Assembly: GCA_965229495.1 (NCBI GenBank)
Contig: OZ245880.1
Span: forward strand, 65,937-129,936
From: Gammaproteobacteria bacterium
Lineage (GTDB): Bacteria > Pseudomonadota > Gammaproteobacteria > CBDBNL01 > G965229495
Direction of reading: 5' to 3'
DNA: 64,000 nucleotides
Shown: positions 30,045-56,466 of the stretch, in pieces
Layout: each line of letters opens with the position of its first letter
Numbering within the stretch: position 1 is the first letter of the stretch
Made by a program: the position numbers and the translations under genes
Notes under the pieces: generated by a model
Told to the model about the DNA's origin: nothing
Database searches by the model: none
What the model saw: only the letters and a program-made list of their open reading frames with translations

Positions 30045-30064
30045 CTTTCAAACAAATTGCCATT

Positions 30065-30922: not shown

Positions 30923-30951
30923 CACTAACTTTAAACTTATGAGAGTGCAAA

Positions 30952-31494: not shown

Positions 31495-31621
31495 TTGAGA
31501 ACTCTGACAACAAAAACACAAACACGTATTGCGCTGGCGATTATGAGTTTGCTGTGTAATGGGGCATCCTCTCTGCTGACTCATACTTGTGCGACGCTAT
31601 ACACTTATAAACCTTATCTCA

Positions 31622-39873: not shown

Positions 39874-41937
39874 TCAAGTATGCCGCAAGCGATACACCTG
39901 CCATCCCAATAACGCCAGAAATACCAGGCTGCCAAGCGCGTTGACCAGTAATTGCTGCGGCCATAGGCAGGCAATGCCTAGCGCCAGGCAGAGCACGCGC
40001 AAGGCAAGGCTCAAGCGCAGCTCCAGCCAGCCTTGCATACAGGCAGCGAGGGCGTAAATTCCGACTAATGCGGATATTGCCACTTGCAGTGCCGCGAGCC
40101 AATCGCTCGCCAGTATAGGCGTGAGGGCAAATAATATCGGCATGATGTATAAACCCTTGGCGAGCTTCCAACTGGCAAAACCAGTGGCCATCGGTGGTGA
40201 TTTGGCGATGGCGGCGGCGGTGAAGGCGGCGAGGCAGACTGGCGGAGTAACGTTAGAATCTTGACTAAGCCAGAAGATAATCATGTGCGCCGATAGCAGC
40301 GCCGGGCTCAAGGTCTCTGGGCTCAGCACTAGCTCGCGTAAGCTCACCAGCAACTCCAGTGGTAAGTCCGCGATCAGTTGCTCGGCTGCCTCTAAGCTCG
40401 CCAATCCACCAGCGCTAGCCACCTCCGGCGCCACCAGGCTCAACAAGGCTTGCGCTTCGATCGCCAGATCGCCGCTGACCAGGGCTGTTGCCAAAAAGCT
40501 ATCGCTGATCATGCCCGCTAGCGCGGGCGCCGAGAGCGTCGCCAGCACGATATAAGCGGCGGTAACTGGCAAGCCCATGCCCAGTACTAAAGACGCCAGG
40601 GCTATCAAAGCAATAGCCAGGATGATATTGCCAGAAGCCCAGGTCGATATCATCAACGAGAAAGTGTTGCCAACTCCAGCGGTGGCTATGACGTTGACGA
40701 TCAAGCCCACCGCGCACAGCAGCACCGCCGTGCCGATCATATTTTTCGCACCCAGCGCCATGGCGTCTAATATCTCGCGCCAGCCCATAGGTTTCGCGCC
40801 CAACCAACTACTGGCAACAATAGCCACGATGCTGATAACGGCGGCGTATTCCGGGGTAAAGCCGAGCATGAGCAGGCTTATCAGCAGGCTAATGGGCAGC
40901 ACGAAGCTGAGGCCGCCGTTCTTGAAGGCTTGCTTGAAGCTGGTGTTGTCGCTGCTATCCGGACGCAAACCTTGTTTGCGCGCCTCGATGCGCACCATAA
41001 AGGCCACCGAGGCGAAGTACAGCAAGGCTGGCAGCAGCGCGGCGACGATTATGCGCTCGTAAGCTATGTTGGTATAGCTGACCATGACGAAGGCGCCAGC
41101 GCCCATAATCGGCGGCATTAGCTGGCCGCCAGTGGAAGCAGCGGTCTCGACGCCGCCGGCAAACTTCGCCGAAAAACCAGCGCGTTTCATCAGCGGGATG
41201 GTCAAGACTCCAGTTGACGCGGTATTGGCGACCGCAGAGCCAGAGATAGTGCCAGTCAAAGCCGACGCTATTACCGCTATGAAACCGGGGCCGCCGACCA
41301 TGCGCCCAGCGACAGCGCGCGCCAATTGCACGATAAATTCGCCAGCACCAGAGCGTAGCAGAAAGGCACCGAAGAGTATGAAGAGAAAAACGTAAGTCGA
41401 GGATATGCGCGCGATGTTGCCAAAGAGCGCGTCGTCGCCATACAGCGAGCGAAACATCAAGGTTTCCAGCGATAAGCCGGGGAAGCGAAACACCCCGCCC
41501 AAGTATTGCCCCCAGAAGGCGACATAGGATAGCGCCAGCACGATGAGCACTGGTATCACCCAGCCAGCGGTTCTCCGAGTGAGCTCTATAGCAGCAACGA
41601 TGAGCACGCCACCAGCAAACCAATCCCAAGAGCTTAGGCGCACACCGCGAGCGTAGATCGCATCTTCGGCGCTGAATGCGTGGATCGCCGCCCAAGCCAC
41701 CAAAGCACCAAATAGCAGGTCAAGCCAGCACCATTTGCCAGAGCCAAAGATCGGATAAACCAAAGCCGCCAGCAAGCCGAAGCCGGCGAAGTGCAGAGCG
41801 TTGCGCCCTAGCTCAGAAACATCGGCGGAAAAGACGAAGTATAGATGCGCCAGCGCGATAACTATTGCCAGCGCAAAAGCCACGCGCCGCCAAACTCCAG
41901 AGAAAATGTCGTTCTCCACGAGGTTGGCGGCGCGCAT
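39874..41937 (-). CDS. TRAP transporter fused permease (TAXI-type DctQ-DctM fusion)
   Basis: 687 aa polytopic membrane protein adjacent to a TAXI binding protein. Confidence 0.8.
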   Translation of the reverse strand: MRAANLVENDIFSGVWRRVAFALAIVIALAHLYFVFSADVSELGRNALHFAGFGLLAALVYPIFGSGKWCWLDLLFGALVAWAAIHAFSAEDAIYARGVRLSSWDWFAGGVLIVAAIELTRRTAGWVIPVLIVLALSYVAFWGQYLGGVFRFPGLSLETLMFRSLYGDDALFGNIARISSTYVFLFILFGAFLLRSGAGEFIVQLARAVAGRMVGGPGFIAVIASALTGTISGSAVANTASTGVLTIPLMKRAGFSAKFAGGVETAASTGGQLMPPIMGAGAFVMVSYTNIAYERIIVAALLPALLYFASVAFMVRIEARKQGLRPDSSDNTSFKQAFKNGGLSFVLPISLLISLLMLGFTPEYAAVISIVAIVASSWLGAKPMGWREILDAMALGAKNMIGTAVLLCAVGLIVNVIATAGVGNTFSLMISTWASGNIILAIALIALASLVLGMGLPVTAAYIVLATLSAPALAGMISDSFLATALVSGDLAIEAQALLSLVAPEVASAGGLASLEAAEQLIADLPLELLVSLRELVLSPETLSPALLSAHMIIFWLSQDSNVTPPVCLAAFTAAAIAKSPPMATGFASWKLAKGLYIMPILFALTPILASDWLAALQVAISALVGIYALAACMQGWLELRLSLALRVLCLALGIACLWPQQLLVNALGSLVFLALLGWQVYRLRHT

Positions 41938-41991
41938 GGACTATGCCTTAGTTGATGCAGCGCTGCCGTGCCTACGGCAGCGCTGATGCTT

Positions 41992-43014
41992 TTATTGGGC
42001 TACCAGGTTGGCTGGAACGTTAATACCGGCTTCACGGTAATAACGCAGCGCGCCTGGGTGCAGCGGTGCTGGTAGGCCAGCGATAGCTTTCTCCAGCGCC
42101 ATAGCTTTGGTGGCTGAGTGAATGGCGTTGAGGAAGGGCAAATTCTCGTACATGACCTTGGTTATTTGATAGACATGGTCTTCGGGCACCGAGCTATGCG
42201 TCGCCAGGAAATTGGGCTGGGCGATGGTCATGATGTCCTGCTCCTGCCCAGGATAGGTGCCAGCCTCGATGTTGAAGGGCGTCCACAAGCCGAAGCCGCC
42301 GTCAGCCTTTTGTGCTTGGCTGGGGGTAAAGCTCAGCAAGCGCACGGCGTCGCCTTTGGCTGCGAATAGCTTGGTTATCGCGCCGGTGGGCACGCCAGCA
42401 GGAGTAGAAATGCCCACTACTTGACCATTTTGCAGCGCGTCTGCCGAGGGACCGTAGCCAGCGTAGAACAGATCAAAGCTAGCGTCCATATCCAAGCCGA
42501 GGTTCGCCAGGATAGTGCGGTTGGAGCCGATGGTGCCGGAGTTCTGCCGCCCCATAGCCATCTTGCTGCCAGATAAATTCAACACCGCGCTGATATCACC
42601 CGCGCCAGCCTGGTCGGCAGCAACGACAAATTGCTCGACATTCTGCCAGAGCATCGACACCGAGCGCAGATGCTCTTGCTTGCCATCGGCAGCAACTGGA
42701 CCGGTTCCAGTCCAAGCGTAGTAGCCGAACAAACCCTGCAATATCGCGAATTGGGCTTCGTTCAAGCGCAGCAAGCGGACGTTCTCACCCGAGCCCGCCG
42801 AGTTGATCGCCGACATGCCGATCTTTTGCTTCGGTTGCAGCTTGACCTTGGTGAGCGTGGCAATAGCTACGCCGACTGGATAGTAAGTACCGCCAGTAGA
42901 CGCCGTCGCCAGCAAATAATCCCCGCCCTCGGCGCGCGCCGACAGCGAAAAACTCAGCGAACCAACCGCCAGCAGCACCGCCAGCAAAGCCTTCACAGTT
43001 TTATTATTGCTCAT
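41992..43014 (-). CDS. TAXI-family TRAP transporter solute-binding protein
   Basis: 340 aa, signal peptide, GGTYYPVGVAIATL TAXI signature. Confidence 0.85.
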   Translation of the reverse strand: MSNNKTVKALLAVLLAVGSLSFSLSARAEGGDYLLATASTGGTYYPVGVAIATLTKVKLQPKQKIGMSAINSAGSGENVRLLRLNEAQFAILQGLFGYYAWTGTGPVAADGKQEHLRSVSMLWQNVEQFVVAADQAGAGDISAVLNLSGSKMAMGRQNSGTIGSNRTILANLGLDMDASFDLFYAGYGPSADALQNGQVVGISTPAGVPTGAITKLFAAKGDAVRLLSFTPSQAQKADGGFGLWTPFNIEAGTYPGQEQDIMTIAQPNFLATHSSVPEDHVYQITKVMYENLPFLNAIHSATKAMALEKAIAGLPAPLHPGALRYYREAGINVPANLVAQ

Positions 43015-43266: not shown

Positions 43267-44133
43267 GTGATACCCGGAAACTTTGAATATCAGGCGCCGA
43301 AGACTTTGAGCGAGGCGATTAGTATTATCGCTGGCAATGAGGACGCGAAGATTATCGCCGGTGGCCATAGCCTGTTGCCGATGATGAAGTTGCGCTTCGC
43401 CGAACCGACGCATCTGGTCGACTTAAAACACATCGAAGAGCTACGCGGCATCAGCCTTGAAGGCGATCGCCTGGTCATCGGCGCGATGACTTCGGAGAGC
43501 GCGGTGCTCAGTTCTGAGCTGGTGCAAAAGCATTGCCCGCTGCTGACCGATGCAGTCAGCCAAATCGCCGACCCGCAAGTACGCAACAAGGGCACCATCG
43601 GCGGCGATATCGCCCACGGCGACCCTGGCAATGATCACCCGGCGATTATGCTGGCGCTGGATGCCGAGTTCGTCATCAATGGTCCCAATGGCACGCGCCG
43701 CCAAGCCGCCAACGGCTTTTTCCTCGGCACTTATTGGACTGGCCTGGAGCAAGGCGATATCCTCTCGCAAGTAATCGTGCCGGTGTTCACGGCGGGCATG
43801 GGTTACGGCTTTCACAAGCTAAAACGCAAAACCGGCGACTACGCCACGGCAGCTGCGCCAGTGGTAGTAAAGATGGCGGCGGGGGTCATTAAAGAGATTC
43901 GCATCGCGCTGACCAATCTCGGCCCTTGCGCTTTCCGCGCCGAGGCCGCCGAGCAGCTTTTGGCTGGTAAGGCGCTCAACGACGACTTGTTAAATCAAGC
44001 CTGCGACTTGGTACGCTCGGCCTGCGAGCCAGCGGAAGATTTGCGCGGCGATAGCGAATACAAATCCCACATGGCGGCCGAGATGGCTCGGCGCTCAATC
44101 CTGGACGCGGTCAAAATGGCAGGAGGCAATTGA
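43267..44133 (+). CDS. coxM: CO dehydrogenase medium (FAD-binding) subunit
   Basis: GTG start after ggagga; [14 protein letters not shown]...[16 protein letters not shown]-binding PCMH domain. Confidence 0.85.
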
Positions 44134-44627
44134 TCATGGCTAAGCAACACATTCAATTCAATCTCAACGGCGAAGACGTCGAGGTATTAGTAGAGCCGCG
44201 CGAGTTACTCGTGCACACGCTGCGCGAGCGGCTGAATTTGACTGGCACCCACATCGGCTGCGAGACCAGCCATTGCGGGGTGTGCACGGTGGACTTGGAC
44301 GGCGAATCGGTCAAGTCGTGCACGGTGCTCGCGGTGCAAGCCGACGGCGCCGAGGTCATGACCGTCGAGGGTATGGCGGGCTCCGAAGGGCTGCACGCCG
44401 TGCAAGAAGCCTTCATCGAAGAGCACGGGCTGCAGTGCGGCTTTTGCACCACTGGCATGATGGTACGCGCCTATCGCTTCCTGGCGGAAAACCCCGACCC
44501 CAGCGAGGAGGAAATCCGCCACGGCATGGCGGGCAACCTCTGTCGCTGCACCGGCTATCAGAACATCATTAAAGCTGTGGCTTCCGCAGCCAAAAAGCTG
44601 CAGGCTCAGCAAGCTGCGTCTGCTTGA
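44130..44627 (+). CDS. coxS: CO dehydrogenase small [2Fe-2S] subunit
   Basis: Two cysteine clusters, CETSHCGVC and CGFCTTG...CRCTGY. Confidence 0.9.
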
Positions 44628-44643
44628 AGGAAGGAGTAAGAAA

Positions 44644-47052
44644 ATGTACATAGATAATAATGACAAAGTCGACCCTCGCGTCGACGAATTAAAAGGCATC
44701 GGCTGCTCGCGCAAGCGCAAAGAAGACCCGCGCTTCGTCCAAGGCAAGGGCAATTACGTCGACGATATCAAGCTGCAAGGTATGCTCTTCGCCGATATGG
44801 TGCGTAGCCCCTACGCGCACGCGCGCATCAAAAGCATAAATAAAGATAAAGCCTTGGCGCTAAAAGGCGTACACGCGGTTTTGACCGCTGACGACCTCAA
44901 GCCGCTGAGCTTGCACTGGATGCCGACTCTGGCTGGCGACGTTCAAGCGGTATTAGCCGATGACAAAGTCCACTTCCAATACCAGGAAGTCGCGGTGGTC
45001 ATCGCCGACGATCGCTACATCGCCGCCGATGCCATCGAGCTGGTTGAAGTCGAGTACGAAGTCTTGCCCGTATTGGTAGACGCCAAGCAAGCGATGGCGA
45101 AAGACGCGCCGGTTTTGCGCGAAGACTTAGTCGGCAAAATGGAAGGCGCGCACTCCAAGCGCATCCACGATAACCACATCTTCCGCTGGGAAGCCGGCGA
45201 TAAAGAGCCGACAGACCGGGCTTTTGAAAACGCCGAAGTCACGGTCAGTCAACATATGTACTACCCGCGTGTGCACCCCAGCCCGCTGGAGACTTGCGGC
45301 TGCGTCGCTTCTTTTGATAAAGTTAAAGGCCACTTGACGGTCTACCTGACCTCGCAAGCGCCGCACGTGGTGCGCACCGTGGTCTCGCTGTTATCGAAGC
45401 TGCCGGAGAGCGCCATCCGCGTGGTCTCACCCGACATCGGCGGCGGCTTTGGTAACAAAGTCGGGGTTTATCCGGGTTACGTAACCGCGATCGTCGCCTC
45501 GATTGTTCTAGGACGCCCAGTGAAATGGGTAGAAGACCGCATGGAAAACCTTTCCACCACCGCTTTCGCGCGCGATTACCACATGACCGGCGAATTAGCC
45601 GCCGATAAAGACGGACGCATCAAAGGCTTGCGCGTCGACGTATTGGCAGACCACGGCGCCTTTGACGCCTGCGCCGACCCGACTAAATTCCCCGCCGGTC
45701 TCTTCCACATCTGCACCGGCTCCTACGATATCCCAGTGGCGCACGTCAAGGTCGACGGCGTTTACACCAACAAAGCCCCCGGTGGCGTCGCTTACCGCTG
45801 CTCCTTCCGCGTTACCGAAGCGGTGTATTTAATCGAGCGCATGATGGACGTGCTGGCGCAAAAGCTCGGCATCGACAAAGCCGAGATTCGCCGCCGCAAC
45901 TTCGTCAAGCGCGAGCAATTCCCCTACAAAACCGCGCTCGGCTGGGAGCTCGACAGCGGCGATTACCACACCGCGCTCGACAAAGTGCTCCAAGCCGTCG
46001 ACTACGATGGCTTGCGCCGCGAGCAAGCCGAGAAGCGCGCGAAAGGCGAGCTAATGGGCATCGGCCTGGTATCCTTCACCGAGATAGTCGGCGCTGGCCC
46101 CACGCGCAATTGCGACATCCTCGGCATCGGCATGTTCGATAGCGCCGAGATTCGCGTTCACCCCACCGGCAGCGTCATCGCGCGCATGGGCACCATCACC
46201 CAGGGCCAGGGGCACCAAACGACTTACGCGCAGATCATCGCCTCCGAGCTCGGCCTCAATTCGGACGACATCCAAATCGAAGAAGGCGACACCGACACCG
46301 CCCCCTACGGCCTCGGCACCTACGGCTCACGCTCGACTCCAGTCGCCGGCGCCGCCACGGCGATGGCAGCGCGCAAAGTCCGCGCCAAAGCCAAGAAGAT
46401 CGCCGCACATTTGCTCGAAGTCGCCGAAGACGACTTGGAGTGGGACATCGACCGCTTCAAAGTCAAAGGCGTACCAGATCAAGAGAAAACCATGAAAGAA
46501 ATCGCTTGGGCGGCGTACAACGATTTGCCGGAAAACATGGAGCCGGGGCTGGAGGCAGTAAATTATTACGACCCACCGAACTTCACTTACCCATTCGGCA
46601 TTTACCTCTGCGTGTTGGATATCGACCGCTTCACCGGCGTAGCATCGGTGCGACGTTTTTACGCGCTCGACGATTGCGGTACGCGCATCAACCCGATGAT
46701 CATCGATGGCCAAATCCACGGCGGCCTCAACGAAGGCTTCGCCGTCGCCATGGGTCAGGAGTTACCCTTTGACGAAGACGGCAACGCCCTCGGCAATACC
46801 TTCATGGATTACTTCATCCCGACCTTTGTCGAAACCCCGCACTGGGAAACCGACTACACGGTAACGCCCTCGCCGCACCACCCGCTCGGTGCCAAAGGCG
46901 TCGCCGAGTCGCCGCACGTCGGCTCAATCCCCTGCTTCACCTCGGCAGTGGTCGACGCCTTCGCGCACATGGATGTTACTCATATGGATATGCCGCATAA
47001 CTCTTACCGCGTCTGGAAGAAGATCAACGAGTTGGGCTTGAATAAAAGATAG
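44644..47052 (+). CDS. coxL: Form I CO dehydrogenase large (molybdopterin) subunit
   Basis: 802 aa; active-site loop VAYRCSFR is diagnostic of form-I CoxL, and the M-S-L gene order is also form I. Confidence 0.9.
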   Translation: MYIDNNDKVDPRVDELKGIGCSRKRKEDPRFVQGKGNYVDDIKLQGMLFADMVRSPYAHARIKSINKDKALALKGVHAVLTADDLKPLSLHWMPTLAGDVQAVLADDKVHFQYQEVAVVIADDRYIAADAIELVEVEYEVLPVLVDAKQAMAKDAPVLREDLVGKMEGAHSKRIHDNHIFRWEAGDKEPTDRAFENAEVTVSQHMYYPRVHPSPLETCGCVASFDKVKGHLTVYLTSQAPHVVRTVVSLLSKLPESAIRVVSPDIGGGFGNKVGVYPGYVTAIVASIVLGRPVKWVEDRMENLSTTAFARDYHMTGELAADKDGRIKGLRVDVLADHGAFDACADPTKFPAGLFHICTGSYDIPVAHVKVDGVYTNKAPGGVAYRCSFRVTEAVYLIERMMDVLAQKLGIDKAEIRRRNFVKREQFPYKTALGWELDSGDYHTALDKVLQAVDYDGLRREQAEKRAKGELMGIGLVSFTEIVGAGPTRNCDILGIGMFDSAEIRVHPTGSVIARMGTITQGQGHQTTYAQIIASELGLNSDDIQIEEGDTDTAPYGLGTYGSRSTPVAGAATAMAARKVRAKAKKIAAHLLEVAEDDLEWDIDRFKVKGVPDQEKTMKEIAWAAYNDLPENMEPGLEAVNYYDPPNFTYPFGIYLCVLDIDRFTGVASVRRFYALDDCGTRINPMIIDGQIHGGLNEGFAVAMGQELPFDEDGNALGNTFMDYFIPTFVETPHWETDYTVTPSPHHPLGAKGVAESPHVGSIPCFTSAVVDAFAHMDVTHMDMPHNSYRVWKKINELGLNKR

Positions 47053-47061
47053 CCCACGGCA

Positions 47062-47652
47062 ATGAAAGTAACCATAGAGAAAACATTCGCCGTCAATGGC
47101 CCCAGCGCCAACGCCTGGTCGATCCTGACCGACATCCCCAAAGTAGCCGGGTGCATTCCTGGCGCCGAGATCAGCACTGAGACCGCCCCAGGCTGCTACG
47201 AGGGCAAAGTTAAAGCCAAGATTGGCCCGGCGGTGATGGTGTTCAACGGCACTGTTACTGTCGACAACATCGACGAGCAACAGCGCGAAATCCGCATCAC
47301 CGGCAAGGGTCAGGATAGCAAGGGCACCTCGTCGGCGGAAATGAAACTCCGCGCTTGGCTCACGGAGCCAGAGCCGCAGCAGTGCCAATTGCAGGGCGAG
47401 GCTGAAGTCTCGGTTACCGGCAAAGTCGCCAGCCTCGGCGGGCGCATGCTCACCCAAGTCGCCGGGCAAATCCTCGACCAGTTCGGCACCAGGTTTGACG
47501 CCACCGTCGTTGCCATGGGCGCAGGCGCCGCAGCCGCAGCCGCGCAAGAAACGCTCGCCGAAGCACCCAAAGAGTTGAACGGCCTGGCGTTCGCTTGGTC
47601 GGTTATCACAGGCTTCCTGCGCTCCCTGTTTGGCGGCAAGGGAAGTAATTGA
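47062..47652 (+). CDS. coxG: CoxG (SRPBCC-fold CO dehydrogenase accessory subunit)
   Basis: MKVTIEKTFAVNGPSANAWSILTDIPKVAGCIPG matches the CoxG N-terminus. Confidence 0.8.
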   Translation: MKVTIEKTFAVNGPSANAWSILTDIPKVAGCIPGAEISTETAPGCYEGKVKAKIGPAVMVFNGTVTVDNIDEQQREIRITGKGQDSKGTSSAEMKLRAWLTEPEPQQCQLQGEAEVSVTGKVASLGGRMLTQVAGQILDQFGTRFDATVVAMGAGAAAAAAQETLAEAPKELNGLAFAWSVITGFLRSLFGGKGSN

Positions 47653-48556
47653 GCCGGGTGCTATGCAGCAGAGCGCTCGCCAGTTAATAGAGTCCACGCA
47701 AGCCAAACTAGCCGAGACCGGTTACATCGCCGACCGCGACCTCGCCACCAGCATGGTGCTGTTCCAGCAATTGGGGCGGCCGATCTTATTCGAGGGCGCC
47801 CCTGGAGTCGGCAAGACCGAGATCGCCTACGCGCTGGCGCAAGTCAACGGCTGCCGCCTCATCCGCCTGCAATGCTACGAGGGCTTAGACGCGCAAGCCA
47901 CGCTCTACGAGTGGAACTATCAATACCAGTTGCTCTCGCTGCGGCTGATGGAGATCGAAAAAGTCCAGCAGCAGCAAATCAGCTCAGCGATCTTCTCGCG
48001 CCAATACTTGCTTGAGCGCCCGCTATTGCAAGCCATCACCCAAGAGACTTCGCCGGTATTGCTCATAGACGAGATCGACCGCGCCGACGAGGAGTTCGAG
48101 GCTTTTCTGCTGGAGCTACTCTCGGAGTACCAGGTGACCATCCCCGAATTGGGCACCATCAAAGCCCGAGCCAAGCCGCACGTAGTCTTAACCTCCAATG
48201 GCACCAGAGAGCTTTCCGATGCTCTCAAGCGCCGTTGCCTCTATCACTACCTGGAGTTCCCAGAATTTGACAAAGAGCTGTCCATAGTCTTGCGGCGGCT
48301 GCCAGAGACCGGCGCGCAATTGGCGCGGCAGATAGTCGGCTTCGTCCAGCAATTGCGCCAGATGAACCTCTCGCGCCGCCCCGGTATCGCCGAGACGCTC
48401 GATTGGGCGGCGGCGCTGCTGCGCCTCAACATCACCAGCCTCGAGCAAGAGCCCGAAGCCTTGCTCGATAGCATGATCTGCCTGCTGAAATCGCGCGAAG
48501 ACCGCCTGAACGTCAACGAGCTCGACTTGCAGCGGCTGGCGGCCAAATCTGTTTGA
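47630..48556 (+). CDS. coxD: MoxR-type AAA+ ATPase CoxD
   Basis: Walker A GAPGVGKTE, Walker B LLIDEIDRA. Confidence 0.85.
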   Translation: MAAREVIEPGAMQQSARQLIESTQAKLAETGYIADRDLATSMVLFQQLGRPILFEGAPGVGKTEIAYALAQVNGCRLIRLQCYEGLDAQATLYEWNYQYQLLSLRLMEIEKVQQQQISSAIFSRQYLLERPLLQAITQETSPVLLIDEIDRADEEFEAFLLELLSEYQVTIPELGTIKARAKPHVVLTSNGTRELSDALKRRCLYHYLEFPEFDKELSIVLRRLPETGAQLARQIVGFVQQLRQMNLSRRPGIAETLDWAAALLRLNITSLEQEPEALLDSMICLLKSREDRLNVNELDLQRLAAKSV

Positions 48557-49741
48557 ATGATGCCGAATCCAGAGCTCTTGAATGCCAGCGAACTCGAGCT
48601 ACGCCTACGCATAGCGCTATTGGCTTTTCTGCGCCTGGCGCGCGCTCAGGGGCACGTCAACGGCATCGCCGAGAGCATAGAAGTAGCGCGCGCGCTAAAG
48701 CTCATCGACATCCTCGATAAAGACGCCGTACGCACTTGCCTGCGCGCGCTGGTGTGCTCGAACCAGCGCCAGTGGGACGGCTTTCCCGAGCTCTTCGACC
48801 AGTTCTGGCTCGCCAATAACCTCCGCAGCGAAATCACCCCGAACCAGAAAAGCCCGGTGGGTCAACGCCAGGATGGCAAGCAGGGCGGTCAAGCCACCAG
48901 CACGCGCCCGTCTCTGGAGCTCGACCTCGCGGGCGAAGGCAATAGCTCGGCGACCGACCACAGCGGCGCCGCCGACGGCGCCTCGGCCTTTGAAGTCGAC
49001 GATAGCGCCGACTTTGCCTTCATCCAGGACGCCGAGCAAATGCGCGCCGCCGAGCAAGTCGCCGAGAAGATTGCCCGCAGCATGTCGCGCCGCCTGGTGC
49101 GCCGCCTGCGCAGCAGCAAGCAGCCGCGCAAGCTCGACTTGCGCCGAACCCTGCGCGCCGCCATGCCACGCGGCGGCGAACCTTTGAACCTGTTTTATAG
49201 CGCCAGGCAGCGACGCCATTGGCAACTCGTCGTCCTGCTCGACGTCAGTAAATCGATGTCGCTGTATTCGACTTTATTCCTGCGCTTCGCGCGCGGCTTG
49301 CTGAATCTATTTGACCGCGCCAACGTCTTCGCCTTCCACACTCGCTTGGTCTCGCTAACCGCAGCGCTGCAAAGCAGCAACCTCGAAGAGCTGCGCGACC
49401 GCCTCAAGCTGCTGTCGGCGGGTTGGGCTGGCGGCACCAAAATCGGCGAGTCCCTGAGCTATTGTTGCGAGCAGCACGCGCCGTTGTTCACCAAGCGCAC
49501 CATTGTCCTGGTGCTGAGCGATGGCCTCGACACTGGCGACCTCAGCCTGCTGGCGAGCAACCTGCAGCGCATCCGCGCCCGCATCCATCGCCTGGTCTGG
49601 CTCAACCCCTTGCTGGGTCGCGCTGGCTACCAGCCGCGCGCTGGCGGTATGCAAGCGGCGCTGCCGCACATAGATCGCTTTTTGCCCGCCAATAGCCTCC
49701 GCAGCCTCGAAGCTTTGGAAGGCGAGTTCGCGCGTTTGTAG
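48557..49741 (+). CDS. coxE: VWA-domain protein CoxE
   Basis: C-terminal VWA with MIDAS-like VLLDVSKSM...SDGLD. Confidence 0.8.
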   Translation: MMPNPELLNASELELRLRIALLAFLRLARAQGHVNGIAESIEVARALKLIDILDKDAVRTCLRALVCSNQRQWDGFPELFDQFWLANNLRSEITPNQKSPVGQRQDGKQGGQATSTRPSLELDLAGEGNSSATDHSGAADGASAFEVDDSADFAFIQDAEQMRAAEQVAEKIARSMSRRLVRRLRSSKQPRKLDLRRTLRAAMPRGGEPLNLFYSARQRRHWQLVVLLDVSKSMSLYSTLFLRFARGLLNLFDRANVFAFHTRLVSLTAALQSSNLEELRDRLKLLSAGWAGGTKIGESLSYCCEQHAPLFTKRTIVLVLSDGLDTGDLSLLASNLQRIRARIHRLVWLNPLLGRAGYQPRAGGMQAALPHIDRFLPANSLRSLEALEGEFARL

Positions 49742-49743
49742 CC

Positions 49744-50484
49744 ATGCTCCCAGCCGATTTATTGCACGAGGCGCACAAGCTGCAGCAGCAAGGCAAGGTC
49801 TTGGCGCTGGCGACCGTGGTGCGCACCGAGGCTTCGACCTCCGCCAAAGCTGGCGCCAAAGCCCTGGTAGACTCCGAGGGCACCATATCTGGCTGGGTCG
49901 GTGGCGGCTGCGCCCAGCCCGCCGTAGTCAAAGCTGCCCAGCTAGTGTTAGCAGATCAGCAGCCGCGCTTGATCCGCGTCAGCCCCAAGTCGGATAGGGT
50001 GCATCCAGAGGGCATCATCAATTACGCCTCCAGTTGCTCCAGCGGTGGCATGCTGGATATCTTCATTGAGCCTATGACCACCCGCCACATCGTCGCCATC
50101 TTCGGCAGCTCGCCACTAGCCGCAGACTTGGCGAAGCTCTGCCCAATGGCTGGCTTTGAGGCGCGCCCTTGCGCCGCCGAAGCTGAGGCACCCACGCAAG
50201 CGCTGCCCCCCTTCGCCGTAGTAGTCGCCACCCAGGGCCGAGGCGATATGCCAGCCCTGCGCGCCGCACTCGGCTCGGCAGCTCGCAACATCTTGTTGGT
50301 CGCCAGCGCCAACAAATCGGCGCGGTTACGCCAGCAGCTCGTAGAGCAAGGCCACGACCCGGAGCGCGTCGCCAGCGTCAAAGCGCCTTGCGGCGTCGAC
50401 ATTGGCGCCAGCACCCCAGCCGAGATCGCCTTCTCGGTTGTGGCGGAGTTGATACGGCTGAAAAACAGCCCTAACGAAAAGTGA
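49744..50484 (+). CDS. coxF: XdhC/CoxF family Moco insertion/sulfuration factor
   Basis: 246 aa, XdhC_CoxI N- and Rossmann-like C-domains. Confidence 0.75.
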   Translation: MLPADLLHEAHKLQQQGKVLALATVVRTEASTSAKAGAKALVDSEGTISGWVGGGCAQPAVVKAAQLVLADQQPRLIRVSPKSDRVHPEGIINYASSCSSGGMLDIFIEPMTTRHIVAIFGSSPLAADLAKLCPMAGFEARPCAAEAEAPTQALPPFAVVVATQGRGDMPALRAALGSAARNILLVASANKSARLRQQLVEQGHDPERVASVKAPCGVDIGASTPAEIAFSVVAELIRLKNSPNEK

Positions 50485-51095
50485 AAGTATCAGCCGTACT
50501 ACTAGCCGCGGGTGAGTCCAAGCGCATGGGCGCGGTCAATAAACTGACCTTGCCCATCAATGGCGAGTCCTTGGTTAGGCGCAGCGCCAAAACCCTATTG
50601 AAAGTCGGGTTACAAGAGATCGTCTGCGTACTCGGCCACGAGTCCGAGCGCGTAGCCGAGCTCTTAGCCGATTTAGCAGTACGCCCGGTCGTCAATGCCA
50701 GCTACCAGGACGGGCAAATGACCTCGGTAGCAAGCGGTCTCGCCGCCCTGCAACAAGACTGCGACGCCATCTTCATCTGCCTCGCCGACCAGCCCTTGCT
50801 CTCGGCGCACGAGCTCAACGTGCTCATCGCCAATTTTGAAGATTGCCGCGATAAGTCCATCGTCGTGCCCTACCACCAAGGCCAGCGCGGTAACCCCATA
50901 TTGCTGGCGGCGCGGCACCACCAGGACATCCTCGCGGGCGAGATCAATTTGGGTTGCAAAGGGCTGATAAAGCAGCATCCAGAGCTAGTCGCCAGCGTCG
51001 AGATGACGCGAGATTACTGCGTAGTCGATATGGATACGCCCAGCGATTACCAGGCGGTCTGCAAGCGCTTCAAGTATTCGCCCCCTTCATCGTAG
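50481..51095 (+). CDS. mocA: Molybdenum cofactor cytidylyltransferase (MobA-like NTP transferase)
   Basis: LLAAGESKRMG...NK nucleotide-binding N-terminus; consistent with MCD-type Moco in form-I CODH. Confidence 0.75.
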   Translation: MKVSAVLLAAGESKRMGAVNKLTLPINGESLVRRSAKTLLKVGLQEIVCVLGHESERVAELLADLAVRPVVNASYQDGQMTSVASGLAALQQDCDAIFICLADQPLLSAHELNVLIANFEDCRDKSIVVPYHQGQRGNPILLAARHHQDILAGEINLGCKGLIKQHPELVASVEMTRDYCVVDMDTPSDYQAVCKRFKYSPPSS

Positions 51096-51097
51096 CA

Positions 51098-51886
51098 ATG
51101 AGCAAAGACATCCACCAAATCATCCACGAAATGTACCAGCGCGGCAACCCCTTCGCCGTCGCCACCGTAGTTGAAACCACGGGTTCGTCCTCGGCAAAAA
51201 TCTCCTCCAAAGCCGTGATCGACCAGGCTGGGCGCGTAGTCGCCGGCTGGGTCGGCGGCGGTTGCGCCGAGTCCGGCACTTGCACCCAAGCCTTGGAGTG
51301 CATGAAAAGCGGCGAAGCGGCTATACTCGATATCGACTTGGACGACGAAGTCCTCGGCGCCGGTATGCCCTGCGGCGGCAGTATGCGCGTCTACATCGAG
51401 CCCATAATCCAAAAGCCGACCTTGTGGATTATGGGGCACGGGCGCGTCGCCGAAAGCCTGTGCGTCATGGCTGAGTTAATGAGCATCAAAACCGTAGTCA
51501 ACGACCCGATCCTGGAGCCGGAAAAATACCCGCCCAACACCACCTTGATCACCGACGATATCAACTACGCCCAGCTCAAACCGCTGGAATGCGATTACGT
51601 CGTCATCGCCACCCAACACAAAGGCGACCACGAATCGATGCAAATTGCCTTGAAGTCGCAAGCCAGCTACATCGCGCTCATCGCCAGCCGCAAGCGCGCC
51701 CAGCTCGTGCTCGATTATTTGCGAGAGCAAGGCTTCAGCCAGCAGGAGATTGCCGAGCGCGTCCTCGCCCCCGCCGGCCTCGACCTCGGCGCCCGCACCC
51801 CCGAAGAAATCGCCTTATGCGTCTTGAGCGAAATAACCCTGCGCCGCCGCGGCGGCTCCGGCCGACCTATGGCGCAGATGGGCTAA
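51098..51886 (+). CDS. Second XdhC/CoxI family protein
   Basis: Start taken at ATG 51098 (MSKDIHQII...); the tracked ORF start 50954 overlaps mocA. XdhC-like domains. Confidence 0.7.
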   Translation: MSKDIHQIIHEMYQRGNPFAVATVVETTGSSSAKISSKAVIDQAGRVVAGWVGGGCAESGTCTQALECMKSGEAAILDIDLDDEVLGAGMPCGGSMRVYIEPIIQKPTLWIMGHGRVAESLCVMAELMSIKTVVNDPILEPEKYPPNTTLITDDINYAQLKPLECDYVVIATQHKGDHESMQIALKSQASYIALIASRKRAQLVLDYLREQGFSQQEIAERVLAPAGLDLGARTPEEIALCVLSEITLRRRGGSGRPMAQMG

Positions 51887-51899
51887 GAGTTAAGGTGCC

Positions 51900-53117
51900 G
51901 TGCAATCCCTGCGTTCGCAATTCCCCATCTTCGGCGAGCAAGCTCGCCGCCAGCCGCTGCGCTACCTCGACAACGCCGCCACTACCCTCAAGCCATTAGC
52001 GGTCATCGATGCCATCAGCGACTGCCAAAGCCGCTTTAACGGCCCAGTGCACCGCGGGCTCTACGAATTGGCGGAGCAAGCCAGCCAGCACTACGAAGCC
52101 GCGCGCCAGCGCGTAGCGCAATTTGTCAACGCTCCCAGCCTTGAGAACATCGTCTTCACCGCCTCGGCAACGCAATCGATCAACCTGGTAGCTATGGCCT
52201 GGGCGCAGCAGCACATCGGCGCTGGCGATCAGATCTACCTCACGCGCTTGGAGCACCACAGCAACTACCTGCCTTGGCAGCGGTTGTGCTGGCAACGCCA
52301 AGCGCGCCTCAAGCTCATCGAACTCAAAGCCGACGGCAGTCTCGACCTTGACGGCGCCGAGGATCTATTTAGCCCACGCACCAAACTCATCGCCCTCAGC
52401 CACGCCTCCAACGTCACTGGCCTGCTGCTGCCGGTAGAGCAAATCTGCGCGCGCGCCCGCGCTGCTAACATCCCCACCGTGGTCGATAGCGCCCAAGCCG
52501 TGCACCATCAAGCTATAGACGTCCAAGCGCTCGGCTGCGACTTCTTAGCCTTCTCTGGGCATAAAATCTTCGGGCCCAATGGCATCGGCGTGCTCTACAT
52601 AAGCCCCAGCTACTTGGGGCAAATGCAGCCGCTCATGCTCGGTGGCGGCATGGTCGACAGCGTCGGCGCCGACTTTGCCAGCACGCAATTCGCCGAACCG
52701 CCTGCCAGCCTCGAAGCTGGATCGCAAAACCTGAGCGGCGCCCACGGCCTCGCCGCTGCTATAGACTTCTTGGAGACCACGCGCGCTCGCGCTGGCAGCG
52801 AATACCTCACCAAACTCGTCAGCGCCGCCAAGCAGCAACTGCGCGCCATTCCTGGAGTCGAGCTCTTGCCTTGCCCCGAAGACCAAGCCGGATCATTATT
52901 CGCCTTCAACCTCAGCGGCGTCCACCCACACGACGTCGCCCAAGTCGCCGCCGAAAGCAACTTGGCGCTGCGCGCTGGGCATCACTGCGCCCAGCCCTTG
53001 ATGCAATCTTTGGGAATAGCCGCCAGCGTCCGCGCCAGCTTCTCTTTTTATAACGACGCCGACGACATCGAAGCATTAGTCAGCGCCGTCCACCGCGCCC
53101 GCAAGGAATTTGCCTAA
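51900..53117 (+). CDS. sufS: Cysteine desulfurase (SufS/CsdA class V aminotransferase)
   Basis: 405 aa; PLP site FSGHKIFGPNGIG, catalytic Cys in HHCAQPL. Confidence 0.85.
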   Translation: MQSLRSQFPIFGEQARRQPLRYLDNAATTLKPLAVIDAISDCQSRFNGPVHRGLYELAEQASQHYEAARQRVAQFVNAPSLENIVFTASATQSINLVAMAWAQQHIGAGDQIYLTRLEHHSNYLPWQRLCWQRQARLKLIELKADGSLDLDGAEDLFSPRTKLIALSHASNVTGLLLPVEQICARARAANIPTVVDSAQAVHHQAIDVQALGCDFLAFSGHKIFGPNGIGVLYISPSYLGQMQPLMLGGGMVDSVGADFASTQFAEPPASLEAGSQNLSGAHGLAAAIDFLETTRARAGSEYLTKLVSAAKQQLRAIPGVELLPCPEDQAGSLFAFNLSGVHPHDVAQVAAESNLALRAGHHCAQPLMQSLGIAASVRASFSFYNDADDIEALVSAVHRARKEFA

Positions 53118-53641
53118 TGAGCGACATTGACAGAGACCAACTCAAACGCTTAGTCTTAGACCATTACAAAAAACCGCGCAACCGGGTTAGTGAACCAATG
53201 ACCGACGCCAGCGTCGTCGAACGCGGCCATAACCCGCAATGCGGCGATGAGATTGAAGTCGGACTTTACATTGAAGATCAAACAATCCGCGATATTAAAT
53301 TCCGCGGCCGCGGCTGCTCCATCTGCATAGCCACCGCCTCAATAATGACCGAGCACATTAAAGGCCAAACCCTCACAGCAAGCACCCAACTCGCCACCAC
53401 CACCCTCCACTGGCTCAAACACGAAATCCATACCAGCGCCAACTCCAACTCCAAAATTAACACCACCACCAACACTAATACCAATGCTAATGCCAACACC
53501 AACCTCACCTCAACACCTCCAACAGCGCCACCCATCCCGGCAATGGCCATCGCCCTCAACTTCCCCATCCGCTGGCGCTGCACCAGCCTCGCCTGGCAAG
53601 CCCTCCACACCGCCTTAACCGCAAGCACACGTACCGATTAA
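53117..53641 (+). CDS. sufU: SufU/IscU-like sulfur acceptor with Asn/Thr-rich linker
   Basis: QCGDEIEVGL...GRGCSICIATAS and C-terminal FPIRWRCTSLAWQAL match SufU (B. subtilis FPARIKCATLSWKAL). An unusual insert, NTTTNTNTNANANTN, lies between them. Confidence 0.75.
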   Translation: MSDIDRDQLKRLVLDHYKKPRNRVSEPMTDASVVERGHNPQCGDEIEVGLYIEDQTIRDIKFRGRGCSICIATASIMTEHIKGQTLTASTQLATTTLHWLKHEIHTSANSNSKINTTTNTNTNANANTNLTSTPPTAPPIPAMAIALNFPIRWRCTSLAWQALHTALTASTRTD

Positions 53642-53835
53642 GCGCCAAAATCCAAGCCAATCGGTGTTTATCTGTGTGCATCTATGCTTCGATACGCGAT
53701 GCTTGATCGAGCCGGGGGTGAGCCCTAACTGGCCTTGGTTGGGTGCTGCACTAACGTGGGCTTATTTGCCCATATGTTGGTCTCAAGCGCTCACTACACG
53801 GCGGGCGAGACGCCACGCGCTCCTAAGCCGGTGTT
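53412..53835. repeat. Duplicated segment copy 1: sufU 3' end + MITE-like L...R repeat
   Basis: Re-occurs at 55822-56250 (about 85% identical, with a ~50-bp indel). Confidence 0.75.
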
Positions 53836-53850
53836 TGCCCGGCTATGCTG

Positions 53851-54030
53851 CTAATCAGCTTCGAGTTTCTTGAGTATTTTGTTGGCTAGCGGCTCTTTAA
53901 TCTCCCTATGCCTTGGTACGGCCTCAACTACTCCTATCTTTGGGTTGACCCATAGCGAGTGAGATCGGCCTTCTCTTTTAAGATAACAGCCAGCCATACG
54001 CAGCTTACGCTCCAAGTCCAAGCGCTTCAT
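53851..54030 (-). CDS. hicA: HicA toxin (mRNA interferase)
   Basis: 59 aa, MKRLDLERKLRMAGCYLKREGRSHSLWVNPKIGVVEAVP... with the HicA GSH(x)W motif. Overlaps the hicB 3' end by 26 nt; not in the ORF track (<60 aa). Confidence 0.7.
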   Translation of the reverse strand: MKRLDLERKLRMAGCYLKREGRSHSLWVNPKIGVVEAVPRHREIKEPLANKILKKLEAD

Positions 54031-54244
54031 TTACTAGAATCTTATCTCTGATAGCATTCGCTGGCAGTCCTCGCAAAACATCCTCGCGTAAGTCTTGCAA
54101 AATAAGTTCTACGGCGCTTCTTAGATTTTCCTTGGTTGCTTCTATGGTCTCGCCCTGTCCATTAGCACCAGGCACCTCGAGGCAGATTGCCCAGTAGCCG
54201 CCTTCAGGCGCTTCTTCAATTATGGCAGTAAATTCTGATTGCAT
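54005..54244 (-). CDS. hicB: HicB antitoxin
   Basis: 79 aa, MQSEFTAIIEEAPEGGYWAICLEVPGANGQGETIEATKENL..., HicB RNase-H-like fold. Confidence 0.75.
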   Translation of the reverse strand: MQSEFTAIIEEAPEGGYWAICLEVPGANGQGETIEATKENLRSAVELILQDLREDVLRGLPANAIRDKILVNEALGLGA

Positions 54245-54324
54245 TTTTAATGCTCCTTATAGCGGATAAACTTGTCTCTTTTCACTCAATTTCTAGCAAT
54301 ATCTCTTTGTTCTGTTCATTGCTG

Positions 54325-55494
54325 CTATCTTGGTATTTGGGAGCAGGAGACTTCTTGGGTGTCGCCGTAGCGTGTGTCTTTTATGCTGGCTCGGCCTGTG
54401 CTTGATGAATATCCTAAGACTACATAGGTGAATGAAACGAGGTTTCCTGAGTAGGTGAATGTTTTGCCAGCGTAAACATGACTGCAAGGATCTTGCCTAA
54501 CCGCTGTGCTTGAAGAAGACTTACTGCTAGTCGAAGTGGAGCTGCTTTTATTTGAGCCATTTACCAAGTTTTCGTAGGCTTCTTGAGCTGATGAGTGTCC
54601 CTGCTTACCCGATTTACGGCACCAATACATGGCTTGATTTTTATCGGGAACGACCCCGATAGCCTCGCGATAAGCTTTGCATAAACCCCATTGACCGTAC
54701 TTATTACCCTGCTCGGCGGATAAAGTCCACCATTCAAAAGCCTTATCGTCGTCTTGGCCTACGCCTTTACCGTTAGCATACATCCAGCCTAAGCTGTACT
54801 GGGCGCTGGCATGGTTTTGCTCAGCGGCCTTGCGATACCACTTGACTGCTTCGGCATCGTTTTGCTCTACGCCTCTACCATTTGCATACATCCAGCCTAA
54901 GTTGTACTGAGCACTAGCATAACCTTGCTCGGCGGCCTTGCGGTACCACCTAACTGCTTCGGCATCGTTTTGCTCTACGCCTCTACCATTTGCATACATC
55001 CAGCCTAAGTTGTACTGAGCACTAGCATAACCTTGCTCGGCGGCCTTGCGGTACCACCTAACTGCTTCGGCATCGTTTTGCTCTACGCCTCTACCATTTG
55101 CATACATCCAGCCTAAATTAGCTTGAGCTATTTGATCGCCAGATTCGGCTAGTGCAACCATACCGGCAAATGCTTCTTCGTAGAGAGCCTTAGACCTAGA
55201 CGTATCTGCCTCTACCACTGAGCCATTTTTATAAAAAACAGCTAGGTTGTATAAGCCGATTGGATTATCCTGACTGGCAGATTTTTGCGCCCATCCGAAG
55301 GCTGCATCCAAGTCTTTTGCTACGCCATAGCCCCTTCTAAGCATACCGCTGAGCACGCCTTGGGAGTAAGCGTCGTCGGCTTGAGCACGCTGGAGAATTT
55401 CTGGATAGCTATTGATAGAGGTATCCTCGGCTATTGCGGCTGCAGGCAGTAGAGCAAGCAGCAGGGCGAGGAAAGTAAGTTTTGGTTTGTGCAT
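54325..55494 (-). CDS. Secreted Sel1-like repeat (SLR/TPR-like) protein
   Basis: Signal peptide followed by at least 7 Sel1 repeats (GxxYxxGxGVxQDxxxAxxWYxKAAxQG). Confidence 0.8.
   Translation of the reverse strand: MHKPKLTFLALLLALLPAAAIAEDTSINSYPEILQRAQADDAYSQGVLSGMLRRGYGVAKDLDAAFGWAQKSASQDNPIGLYNLAVFYKNGSVVEADTSRSKALYEEAFAGMVALAESGDQIAQANLGWMYANGRGVEQNDAEAVRWYRKAAEQGYASAQYNLGWMYANGRGVEQNDAEAVRWYRKAAEQGYASAQYNLGWMYANGRGVEQNDAEAVKWYRKAAEQNHASAQYSLGWMYANGKGVGQDDDKAFEWWTLSAEQGNKYGQWGLCKAYREAIGVVPDKNQAMYWCRKSGKQGHSSAQEAYENLVNGSNKSSSTSTSSKSSSSTAVRQDPCSHVYAGKTFTYSGNLVSFTYVVLGYSSSTGRASIKDTRYGDTQEVSCSQIPR
54780..55120. repeat. 108-bp tandem repeat x3 inside the Sel1 gene (two copies identical)
   Basis: catccagcctaagttgtactgagcactagcataaccttgctcggcggccttgcggtaccacctaactgcttcggcatcgttttgctctacgcctctaccatttgcata occurs twice perfectly plus one diverged copy. 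Confidence 0.8.
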
Positions 55495-55805
55495 GGCTTG
55501 ATTTTTGGGAATTGCGAATTCCTGGGATTATAGCAAGCGCGGCTAAGGGCAAATAACGTAAGTCTATACACCTATAGCTAATGCTAACCTGAATTCATTG
55601 GATAATCCGCAAGAATCCCATCGATTTGGGTTAAGTGGTTTATGTTTTGGGGCTTGTTGACAGTCCAAGTGTTGGTGATGAGACCGAGTTGGTGGCGCGG
55701 TGGAGGTTTTGGGAGGTAAAGTCTTGGTGGTGGGGCGCCCGGGCTTGGTAGATGAGGTCGGGGAGTGAGTTGGCGAGTTGATCAATAAGGCGGTGGGGTG
55801 AAGCG

Positions 55806-55994
55806 TTGGGTTGGTGCTTAGGGGGGCTAAAACACGAAATCAACACCAGCACCGCCCCCACCTCAACCCCTCCAATAGCACCACCCATCCCGGCAATGGC
55901 CATCGCCCTCAACTTCCCCATCCGCTGGCGCTGCACCAGCCTCGCCTGGCAAGCCCTCCACACCGCCTTAAGCACAAGCACACGTACCGATTAA
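55806..55994 (+). pseudogene. Duplicated 3' fragment of sufU (encodes ...PAMAIALNFPIRWRCTSLAWQALHTAL...)
   Basis: Copy 2 of the 53412-53835 segment; lacks the sufU N-terminal two-thirds. Confidence 0.55.
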
Positions 55995-56250
55995 ATGCCA
56001 AAATCTAAGCCAATGTTAAGAATTGGCAGTGTTGCATAGATGATCTGTGATTGCTACCAAGACAATCAATGTCTCTCTGTGTGCATCTGTGGCTCGATAA
56101 GCGATGCTTGATCGAGCAGGTGGTGAGATGCCGCGCCCTGGTGGGCTCGGTTGGGCGCGGTGATTATGTGGGCTTATTTGCCCAAAGACCGAAGCTGACG
56201 GCTTCATTTTTTACACGGCGTGGCGAGACGCCACGCGCTCCTAAGGAAAC
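55995..56250. repeat. MITE-like L...R repeat copy (part of duplicated segment copy 2)
   Basis: tgtgtgcatctgtggctcgataagcgatgcttgatcgagc ... gtgggcttatttgccca ... acacggcgtggcgagacgccacgcgctcctaagg; hairpin cgtggcg-aga-cgccacg. Confidence 0.7.
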
Positions 56251-56354
56251 TCTGATTAATTCTATTGTGGAGGCAAACTTTAAGTTTGCGTGAGTGGGTG
56301 TGCTGGGTGGGTTTATCGATACTGGCAATGCGGCGAATGCAGCTATAATCGCCT

Positions 56355-56466
56355 TAAATTATGCGGTGATTATTATATGGATACATCAGCATCGAAATTG
56401 TCCGAACTTTTCTTGGGATGCTGCCGCTCTTGCTGGTGAGCTGGCTGCTGTGAGCGTGCAAAGTTG
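56355..56466 (+). pseudogene. Truncated 5' fragment of fic, including conserved promoter-like upstream region from ~56310
   Basis: About 85% identical to 59710-59860. Start codon is mutated ATG>ATA; reads WIHQHRNCPNFSWDAAALAGELAAV then stops. Confidence 0.55.

Follow-up and report, generated by a model that had tools for sequence, protein, structure and literature searches.

From where does aerobic carbon monoxide dehydrogenase (CODH), the enzyme that drives much of the bacterial consumption of atmospheric CO, obtain the sulfur of its unique Mo-S-Cu cluster? A 2014 model of CODH maturation stated that the sulfur source of the cluster was not known (PMC4240915). A 64,000-nucleotide stretch of a gammaproteobacterial genome (contig OZ245880.1, positions 65,937 to 129,936; referred to here as the window) raises this question, since eleven co-directional genes on its plus strand, coxM-S-L-G-D-E-F, mocA, coxI, sufS, and sufU, occupy positions 43267–53641 and place a cysteine desulfurase gene and a sulfurtransferase gene at the end of a CODH cluster. 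From the analysis described below, we consider that the sufS-sufU pair is probably a dedicated sulfur-mobilizing end module of the form-I CODH maturation operon. The pair would be the best candidate yet for the sulfur donor of the Mo-S-Cu center.

A form-I CODH cluster that ends with sufS and sufU

The proteins of the window were assigned to families with Pfam and NCBIfam profile models. CoxL (44644–47052, 802 amino acids) scored 1470.7 bits with TIGR02416, the model of the large subunit of aerobic CODH, against a cut-off of 991.15, and its translation carried the active-site loop AYRCSFR with the copper-binding Cys at residues 383–389 (45790–45810). The genes of the three subunits were in the order M-S-L and were accompanied by the accessory genes coxD, coxE, and coxF. 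Judged by these features of the sequence, the window CoxL is a genuine form-I Mo-Cu CO dehydrogenase large subunit. An earlier annotation of the window made from its letters alone (the sequence-only reading) had called CoxL a form-I enzyme with the AYRCSFR loop and had given the gene order as M-S-L, and both statements agreed with the profile score and the gene assignments.

The first gene, coxM (43267–44133), was preceded by a GGAGG sequence resembling a ribosome-binding site and encoded the flavin adenine dinucleotide (FAD)-binding medium subunit of 288 amino acids, with the domains PF00941 (FAD_binding_5) and PF03450 (CO_deh_flav_C). It overlapped by 4 nucleotides (nt) with coxS (44130–44627), which encoded the small subunit of 165 amino acids with two [2Fe-2S] domains (PF01799 and PF00111). 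Downstream of coxL were coxG (47062–47652), encoding an SRPBCC-type protein of 196 amino acids (PF06240, E = 4.5e-17), coxD (47663–48556), encoding a MoxR-type AAA+ ATPase of 297 amino acids with AAA_5 and AAA domains (MadB-like, 268 bits) and the Walker A motif GAPGVGKT, and coxE (48557–49741), encoding a von Willebrand A protein of 394 amino acids (PF05762 VWA_CoxE, E = 6e-61). The reading frame of coxD was open from 47630, and comparison with orthologues indicated the ATG at 47663 as the likely start.

Two XdhC-family proteins, each with PF02625 and PF13478 domains, were encoded by coxF (49744–50484, 246 amino acids) and coxI (51098–51886, 262 amino acids). CoxF showed 41–47% identity with the products of coxF-position genes in related clusters, and CoxI showed 58–71% identity with 26 orthologues, among which the motifs GGGCAES and MPCGG were invariant. 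A start of coxI at the TTG at 50954 was rejected, since comparison with orthologues pointed to the ATG at 51098, 2 nt past the mocA stop, as the likely start. Between coxF and coxI was a mocA-like gene (50481–51095, 204 amino acids) for a putative cytidylyltransferase of the molybdenum cofactor (Moco), with TIGR03310 as the best match and an additional match to PF12804. Because its TIGR03310 score of 157.7 bits was below the equivalog cut-off of 186.45, the name mocA rests on the best match and the gene context. With MocA named in this way, the two XdhC-like factors and the MocA listed in the sequence-only reading were recovered.

The last two genes were sufS (51900–53117), encoding a cox-type group II cysteine desulfurase of 405 amino acids (TIGR01979; PF00266, E = 2e-126), and sufU (53117–53641), encoding a cox-type SufU-like sulfurtransferase of 174 amino acids (TIGR01994). 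The gap between coxI and sufS was 13 nt, and the stop codon of sufS overlapped the start codon of sufU (TAATG). Given the revised starts, the intergenic distances along the cluster were -4, 16, 9, 10, 0, 2, -4, 2, 13, and -1 nt. A single operon is the natural reading of this arrangement, and we infer co-transcription of all eleven genes. In a consensus scan, promoter-like and terminator-like sites were no more frequent than in shuffled sequence.

SufS of the window belongs to a cox-linked clade

The nearest relatives of the window SufS were metagenomic proteins with 92–96% identity, followed by a block with 51–55% identity in which the few named members came from metagenome-assembled genomes of Gamma-, Beta-, and Deltaproteobacteria. 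Metagenome contigs were scanned with a degenerate DNA pattern made from motifs common to the SufS group of the window, and the 120 loci obtained were annotated by tblastn with the window proteins and with the SufB, SufC, and SufD annotated on a Polaromonas plasmid. Canonical SufS sequences from genome-contig loci, with at most 47% identity among the matches listed, served as the control set.

In the phylogenetic tree, the window SufS was grouped in a clade of 56 rows with a FastTree support of 99 and, in a 57-row subset analyzed with IQ-TREE, a Shimodaira–Hasegawa-like approximate likelihood ratio test (SH-aLRT) value of 100. Fifty-two of the 56 rows were linked to cox genes, and in the remaining four the DNA upstream was shorter than 750 nt. 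Directly upstream of sufS, 46 of the 47 members with at least 900 nt of upstream sequence encoded a CoxI orthologue (identity of 50% or more), and mocA took that place in one. By tblastn, sufB, sufC, and sufD were found near clade members in none of the loci, whereas the 103 control SufS genes, counted among the matches listed, sat with sufBCD and outside the clade. The complete order coxMSLGDEF-mocA-coxI-sufS-sufU was present in several contigs (e.g., L138, L181, and L197), and the CoxL loop read [AS]YRCS[FL]R, a form-I loop, in all 11 related loci that covered it. The window SufS also differed in a motif, with HRGLY in the place of the HRG[VI]H of most canonical SufS proteins. The coxI-sufS linkage thus joins an XdhC-family chaperone to a desulfurase, which is the arrangement looked for in XdhC-dependent sulfuration of Moco.

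When the class was searched for SufS at E <= 1e-115, a threshold that would miss divergent cox-type SufS, one other match was obtained, which was linked to sufBCD. In the tblastn search of plasmids, the two matches with an inspected neighborhood were ordinary sufBCDSU operons. A second SufS clade of four genes (L143, L164, L165, and L171), nested among the canonical sequences, was also found in cox/mocA clusters. In three of these four loci the encoded CoxL was 60–63% identical to that of the window, and L164 had the AYRCSFR loop. In this second clade, a desulfurase was probably recruited into cox clusters independently.

Active-site residues of SufS and the signature of cox-type SufU

The window SufS scored 470.6 bits with TIGR01979, narrowly below the cut-off of 475.1, which is consistent with a divergent subgroup. 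The protein retained the class-V aminotransferase fold, the Lys222 that binds pyridoxal 5'-phosphate (PLP), and the catalytic Cys363 in the sequence RAGHHCAQ, and both residues were invariant in its group. The HPHD motif was also conserved, and its second histidine, His344, aligned without gaps to His342 of Bacillus subtilis SufS. In B. subtilis, His342 swaps onto the zinc of SufU in place of SufU Cys41, and this residue is found only in SufS proteins that are partnered with SufU (PMC8918507). A one-residue deletion that had been suspected at GGGMVD of the window SufS, where canonical proteins have GGGxMI, was rejected, since alignment with B. subtilis SufS showed a substitution and no insertion or deletion.

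The window SufU scored 104.3 bits with TIGR01994, above the cut-off of 92.5, and all residues of the Cys-Asp-Cys-Cys zinc site were present as Cys42, Asp44, Cys67, and Cys155. In an alignment of 27 orthologues, these four residues and Cys70 were invariant. The second zinc-ligand cysteine and the extra Cys70 together form the CxxC of GRGCSIC (53306–53326, plus strand), a signature of the cox-type SufU, which aligned to Cys66 to Ser69 of B. subtilis SufU with Cys70 opposite Ser69. Because SufS keeps Lys222, Cys363, and HPHD and SufU keeps the four zinc ligands, ordinary persulfide transfer from SufS to SufU would be expected for the window pair.

The cox-linked SufU proteins formed a separate clade (SH-aLRT 96). 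They had the motifs NPRCGD, GC-S-[IV]-C, and R[KR][KR]CVLLAW, where canonical SufU proteins had NP[LT]CGD, GC[AS]IS, and R[IV]KCATLAW. The extra cysteine was present in 48 of 50 cox-linked SufU sequences, compared with 3 of 83 that were linked to sufBCD. A housekeeping, sufBCD-linked SufU of another genome of the class, G393 (L260 1872–2318), also had a cysteine at the +3 position (SCAIC), so the extra cysteine is not strictly exclusive to the cox-type clade. In cox-type SufU, this residue could act as a relay thiol, as a fourth metal ligand, or as a Cu(I) site.

The pair occurs in a genome without SufBCD

The genome containing the window is a single contig of 2.68 Mb with 95.9% completeness. 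The model for SufB had no match in this genome and matched 14 of 14 control genomes. The best match for SufC, 93 bits against a cut-off of 212.8, was at the level of an ordinary ABC ATPase. Genes sufBCD were thus absent from the window and from the whole genome, and the pair is not part of a sulfur mobilization (SUF) operon. The sequence-only reading had placed a sufS-sufU pair without sufBCD directly downstream of the cox genes, and the two genes at 51900–53641 and the genome search confirmed this. In contrast, the iron-sulfur cluster (ISC) desulfurase IscS was found with 680 bits, above its cut-off, and IscU and IscA were also present, so general Fe-S assembly is covered by ISC. Because SufBCD is missing, SufS-SufU cannot feed a SUF scaffold in this organism.

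One other molybdenum hydroxylase, a xanthine dehydrogenase, was encoded in the genome (C1:1507–1511 kb; XdhA 566 bits, XdhB 1062 bits). A genuine XdhC (TIGR02964, 224 bits) was encoded far from xdhAB and convergent to iscS, about 470 nt from the end of the latter (G000:C1:1042525–1044960; L245 4505–6960). This is a second chaperone-desulfurase neighborhood in the genome, which may be meaningful or merely coincidental.

Of 401 genomes sampled from the class, 13 encoded a form-I CoxL, and the cox loci of the other 12 were compared with that of the window. In three of the 12 loci, those of G192 (L247), G393 (L249), and G354 (L251), a cox-type sufU with CxxC came after mocA-coxI, and sufS was missing. 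Four of the others ended with coxI, four had neither mocA-coxI nor sufU, and the last had a single weakly XdhC-like gene (34% identity to CoxI) with neither mocA nor sufU. In the form-I cluster L241 (G007:C77), the order was coxMSLG-coxF-mocA-coxI with no coxD or coxE between coxG and coxF, and sufS and sufU were absent from the 2.4 kb downstream. Each of G192, G393, and G354 had a separate housekeeping sufBCDSU operon (L258–L260), whose SufU was outside the cox-type clade and had the canonical C-terminal motif RVKCA. Since the sufU-only genomes have a separate canonical SufU, a dedicated SufU paralogue stays beside coxI. Among the four genomes compared, the operon-encoded desulfurase was found in the one examined genome with no other SufS of its own. 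It is suggestive, from these four genomes, that the carrier SufU would be the cox-specific part and sufS a passenger that is needed where SUF is missing.

These loci also bear on a different role for the pair, namely assembly or repair of both [2Fe-2S] clusters in CoxS by a private, oxygen-tolerant Fe-S supply, in which SufU with its four cysteines and one aspartate would serve as a small scaffold. CoxS requires two clusters, SufU has the IscU/NifU fold with IscU and SufU proteins as its best matches in the PDB, and the invariant Cys70 would provide a fourth thiol near the metal site. However, the position of the pair was always behind mocA-coxI and never behind coxS, and clusters without mocA-coxI had no sufU. 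The window genome has complete IscS, IscU, and IscA, the genomes with cox-type SufU alone already have a full SUF system, and canonical SufU is viewed as a zinc sulfurtransferase rather than a scaffold (PMC8918507). We therefore consider an Fe-S supply for CoxS unlikely.

Proposed route of sulfur to the Mo-S-Cu center

Because the constant neighbor of the pair was the mocA-coxI sub-module, the next sulfur acceptor was deduced from position, and the pair would most likely sulfurate Moco on CoxI or in CoxL. In the first step, SufS would draw sulfur from L-cysteine as a persulfide by means of PLP, Lys222, and Cys363. The cox-type SufU would then dock through its zinc site (Cys42, Asp44, Cys67, and Cys155), with His344 of SufS as the swapped ligand, and would accept the persulfide on Cys42. 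In the third step, SufU would hand the sulfur to the molybdopterin cytosine dinucleotide (MCD) form of the cofactor, which MocA would synthesize and the XdhC/PaoD-like CoxI would carry; alternatively, the sulfur would go straight to the [MoO3] site of the folded CoxL with the help of CoxD. Copper would finally be added by CoxD, CoxE, and CoxF to give the Mo-S-Cu center. Of the two acceptors, we favor the Mo-MCD bound to CoxI, with copper inserted afterwards through CoxD, CoxE, and CoxF. In Rhodobacter capsulatus, the desulfurase NifS4 binds to XdhC and sulfurates the Moco bound there (PMC2997495, PMC13653126), and CoxI was reported to be closest to the MCD chaperone PaoD (PMC2997495). Dedicated sulfur delivery had been suggested in the sequence-only reading; the idea gained support from the ISC-only genome, the coxI-linked clades, the SufU signature, and the occurrence of sufU without sufS, and from these we infer the sulfur-transfer steps and the identity of the acceptor.

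A further-reaching version of this route would have the cox-type SufU bring copper to molybdenum as well, either as Cu(I) alongside the sulfur or as a Cu-S unit formed beforehand, and so act as the assembler of the Mo-S-Cu center, with SufS as an exchangeable supplier that is recruited where there is no housekeeping SufS. We regard this version as distinctly unlikely.

Sulfur from the pair might instead enter the dithiolene of molybdopterin by way of the MoaD thiocarboxylate, so that Moco supply is raised on induction of CODH and no terminal or bridging sulfido ligand is provided. Cysteine desulfurases feed MoaD in Escherichia coli, the pair is near mocA, a Moco-tailoring gene, and in two loci (L139 and L215) mocA was directly upstream of sufS with no coxI. 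However, no moaD, moeB, or moaE was identified among the genes of the cluster, the neighbor in 46 of 47 loci encoded an XdhC-type chaperone, which handles the finished cofactor, and IscS is there for housekeeping Moco synthesis. A dithiolene supply is thus very unlikely in our judgment. That the pair has no functional tie to CODH, being left over from a SUF operon that was lost or having landed behind the cox genes by hitch-hiking, is hardly credible: searches of five genomes from the sister family, which belongs to the same order, gave neither SufS nor a form-I CoxL, so that the entire block may be an acquisition, and the 3' end of sufU is rearranged, but the cox-linked gene order was repeated in more than 50 metagenomic contigs, SufS and SufU form cox-only clades with none of the loci near sufBCD, and identities of 43–54% for SufS and 72–86% for CoxL speak against a near-clonal mobile element, so that this conservation would effectively exclude chance hitch-hiking.

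Several observations weigh against a dedicated sulfur-donor role of sufS-sufU. The metagenome loci were picked with a pattern from the SufS group of the window and were not a random sample of SufS, although the pattern does not impose the result, because the 120 loci held cox-linked, sufBCD-linked, and other genes. The genome also encodes a sulfido-requiring xanthine dehydrogenase, whose own XdhC is encoded beside IscS. Both sufS and sufU were missing from 9 of the 12 form-I clusters sampled in the class, and the module is therefore optional. The branches of the window proteins were long (0.69 for SufS and 1.2 for SufU), and these branches, together with a repeat expansion in the SufU linker, may reflect a reduced function of the pair in this strain. 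In the model for Oligotropha, sulfuration takes place after Moco insertion, in the folded apoenzyme and with CoxD (PMC4240915), and a CoxI-bound acceptor fits less well for this reason.

We propose that the module is a dedicated desulfurase system for sulfuration of the molybdenum cofactor. No paper linking SufS or SufU with coxMSL or XdhC was found in the literature covered, which was incomplete, so this is not proof of novelty. No such module was found in a search for CODH together with maturation and desulfurase, and a review from 2026 on the sulfido ligand of Moco made no mention of CODH, CoxD, or SufU. The new elements in this locus are the natural SUF-free background, the genuine form-I enzyme, the CxxC signature, and the variants with coxI and sufU only. 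The confinement of the pair to the position behind the gene for the CoxI chaperone gives concrete candidates for the question of the CODH sulfur source. It also suggests that XdhC-type chaperones may have lineage-specific sulfur donors and that the SufU fold is re-used outside Fe-S assembly. The variants with coxI and sufU only predict that specificity is set by the carrier and not by the desulfurase.

The 3' end of sufU and the flanking genes

The sequence-only reading had noted an unusual Asn/Thr-rich insert in SufU. The insert was real, since alignment with orthologues located an Asn/Thr/Pro-rich linker at residues 105–139 (53429–53533, plus strand), which exceeded the linker in 26 orthologues by about 29 residues, and the insert was absent from all 26. 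However, it was not a feature of the family but a lineage-specific repeat expansion, whose core was an imperfect 6-nt repeat (CCAACA, 10.8 copies, 53439–53503). The window sufU was intact and kept all invariant residues.

The 3' end of sufU was part of a direct repeat of about 420 bp, the two copies of which were 80–100% identical depending on the segment and 2.4 kb apart. Copy 1 (53412–53827, plus strand) consisted of the sufU 3' end and an intergenic repeat element, and copy 2 (55825–56245, plus strand) consisted of an orphan sufU 3' fragment and the same element. The orphan fragment corresponded to the last 56 codons of sufU, with the stop at 55994, and lacked 60 nt of the Asn/Thr repeat tract. 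Between the copies was a 2-kb insertion of lower GC content with three genes, all on the minus strand: hicA (53851–54030; PF07927, E = 3e-8), a hicB-like gene (54005–54244) with a weak match to UPF0150 (18.3 bits against a cut-off of 27.3), and a gene for a Sel1-repeat protein of 389 amino acids with a signal-peptide-like N-terminus (54325–55494; PF08238, E = 4e-63). The Sel1-repeat gene contained three near-identical 108-nt tandem units (54749–55128), and its product had a Ser-rich tail. A few short-sided joints in contigs of the sequencing runs (e.g., 53401 to 55825) would delete the 2.4-kb segment, which is a weak hint of co-occurring strains without the insertion. Contig depth, summed over four public runs of one study, was several-fold above that of the neighboring genes at 53618–53991 and 56236–56422. 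The raised depth would be compatible with a dispersed repeat element, and GGCGAGACGCCACGCGCTCCTAAG was present at both sites.

Upstream of coxM and divergent from it, a TAXI-type tripartite ATP-independent periplasmic (TRAP) transporter with fused permease and a solute-binding subunit was encoded at 39874–43014 on the minus strand. A gene for a Crp/Fnr-family regulator was located at 56507–57061, also on the minus strand. Farther away, at 30001–32000, the GC fraction fell to 0.42, compared with about 0.55–0.60 in the surrounding sequence.

Comparison with known systems

The eukaryotic ABA3/HMCS proteins resemble the proposed module in that they use a SufS-like desulfurase domain specifically for sulfuration of the Moco of xanthine-oxidase-family enzymes, and this domain passes the sulfur to a cofactor-binding partner domain (PMC13653126). 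Whereas SufS and SufU of the window are separate proteins, ABA3 combines two domains in one polypeptide, the C-terminal one being of the MOSC type, and neither SufU nor XdhC is involved (PMC13653126).

B. subtilis SufS and SufU (PDB ID: 5XT5; PMC8918507) were among the best PDB matches of the window pair and have in common with it the fold, the PLP-binding lysine, the catalytic cysteine, the zinc-swapping histidine, and the zinc ligands of SufU. The window pair differs in that the genome has no SufBCD acceptor and in that both proteins belong to separate clades. The window SufU also has a cysteine in place of Ser69, which creates the CxxC, and a basic R[KR][KR]CV motif.

The cox cluster of Oligotropha carboxidovorans, coxMSL-DEFG-H-I-K, shares with that of the window a form-I coxMSL, the AAA+ ATPase CoxD, the von Willebrand A protein CoxE, and the XdhC-like CoxF and CoxI (PMC4240915). 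The genes listed for the Oligotropha cluster in the papers covered include neither a cysteine desulfurase nor SufU (PMC4240915). The window cluster adds mocA, sufS, and sufU. Furthermore, coxG precedes coxD in the window, and the Oligotropha membrane genes coxB, coxC, coxH, and coxK are not among its eleven genes.

XdhC and NifS4 of R. capsulatus are similar to the proposed module in that an XdhC-family chaperone and an L-cysteine desulfurase together add the sulfido ligand to the cofactor of a xanthine-oxidase-family enzyme (PMC2997495, PMC13653126). NifS4 is shared and apparently essential, and nothing in the reviews places its gene together with xdhC (PMC2997495, PMC13653126). In the window, by contrast, the desulfurase belongs to the group II SufS type and depends on a SufU-type acceptor, the genes for both proteins lie in the operon of the enzyme itself, and the proposed target is the Mo-S-Cu center of CODH with its MCD cofactor.

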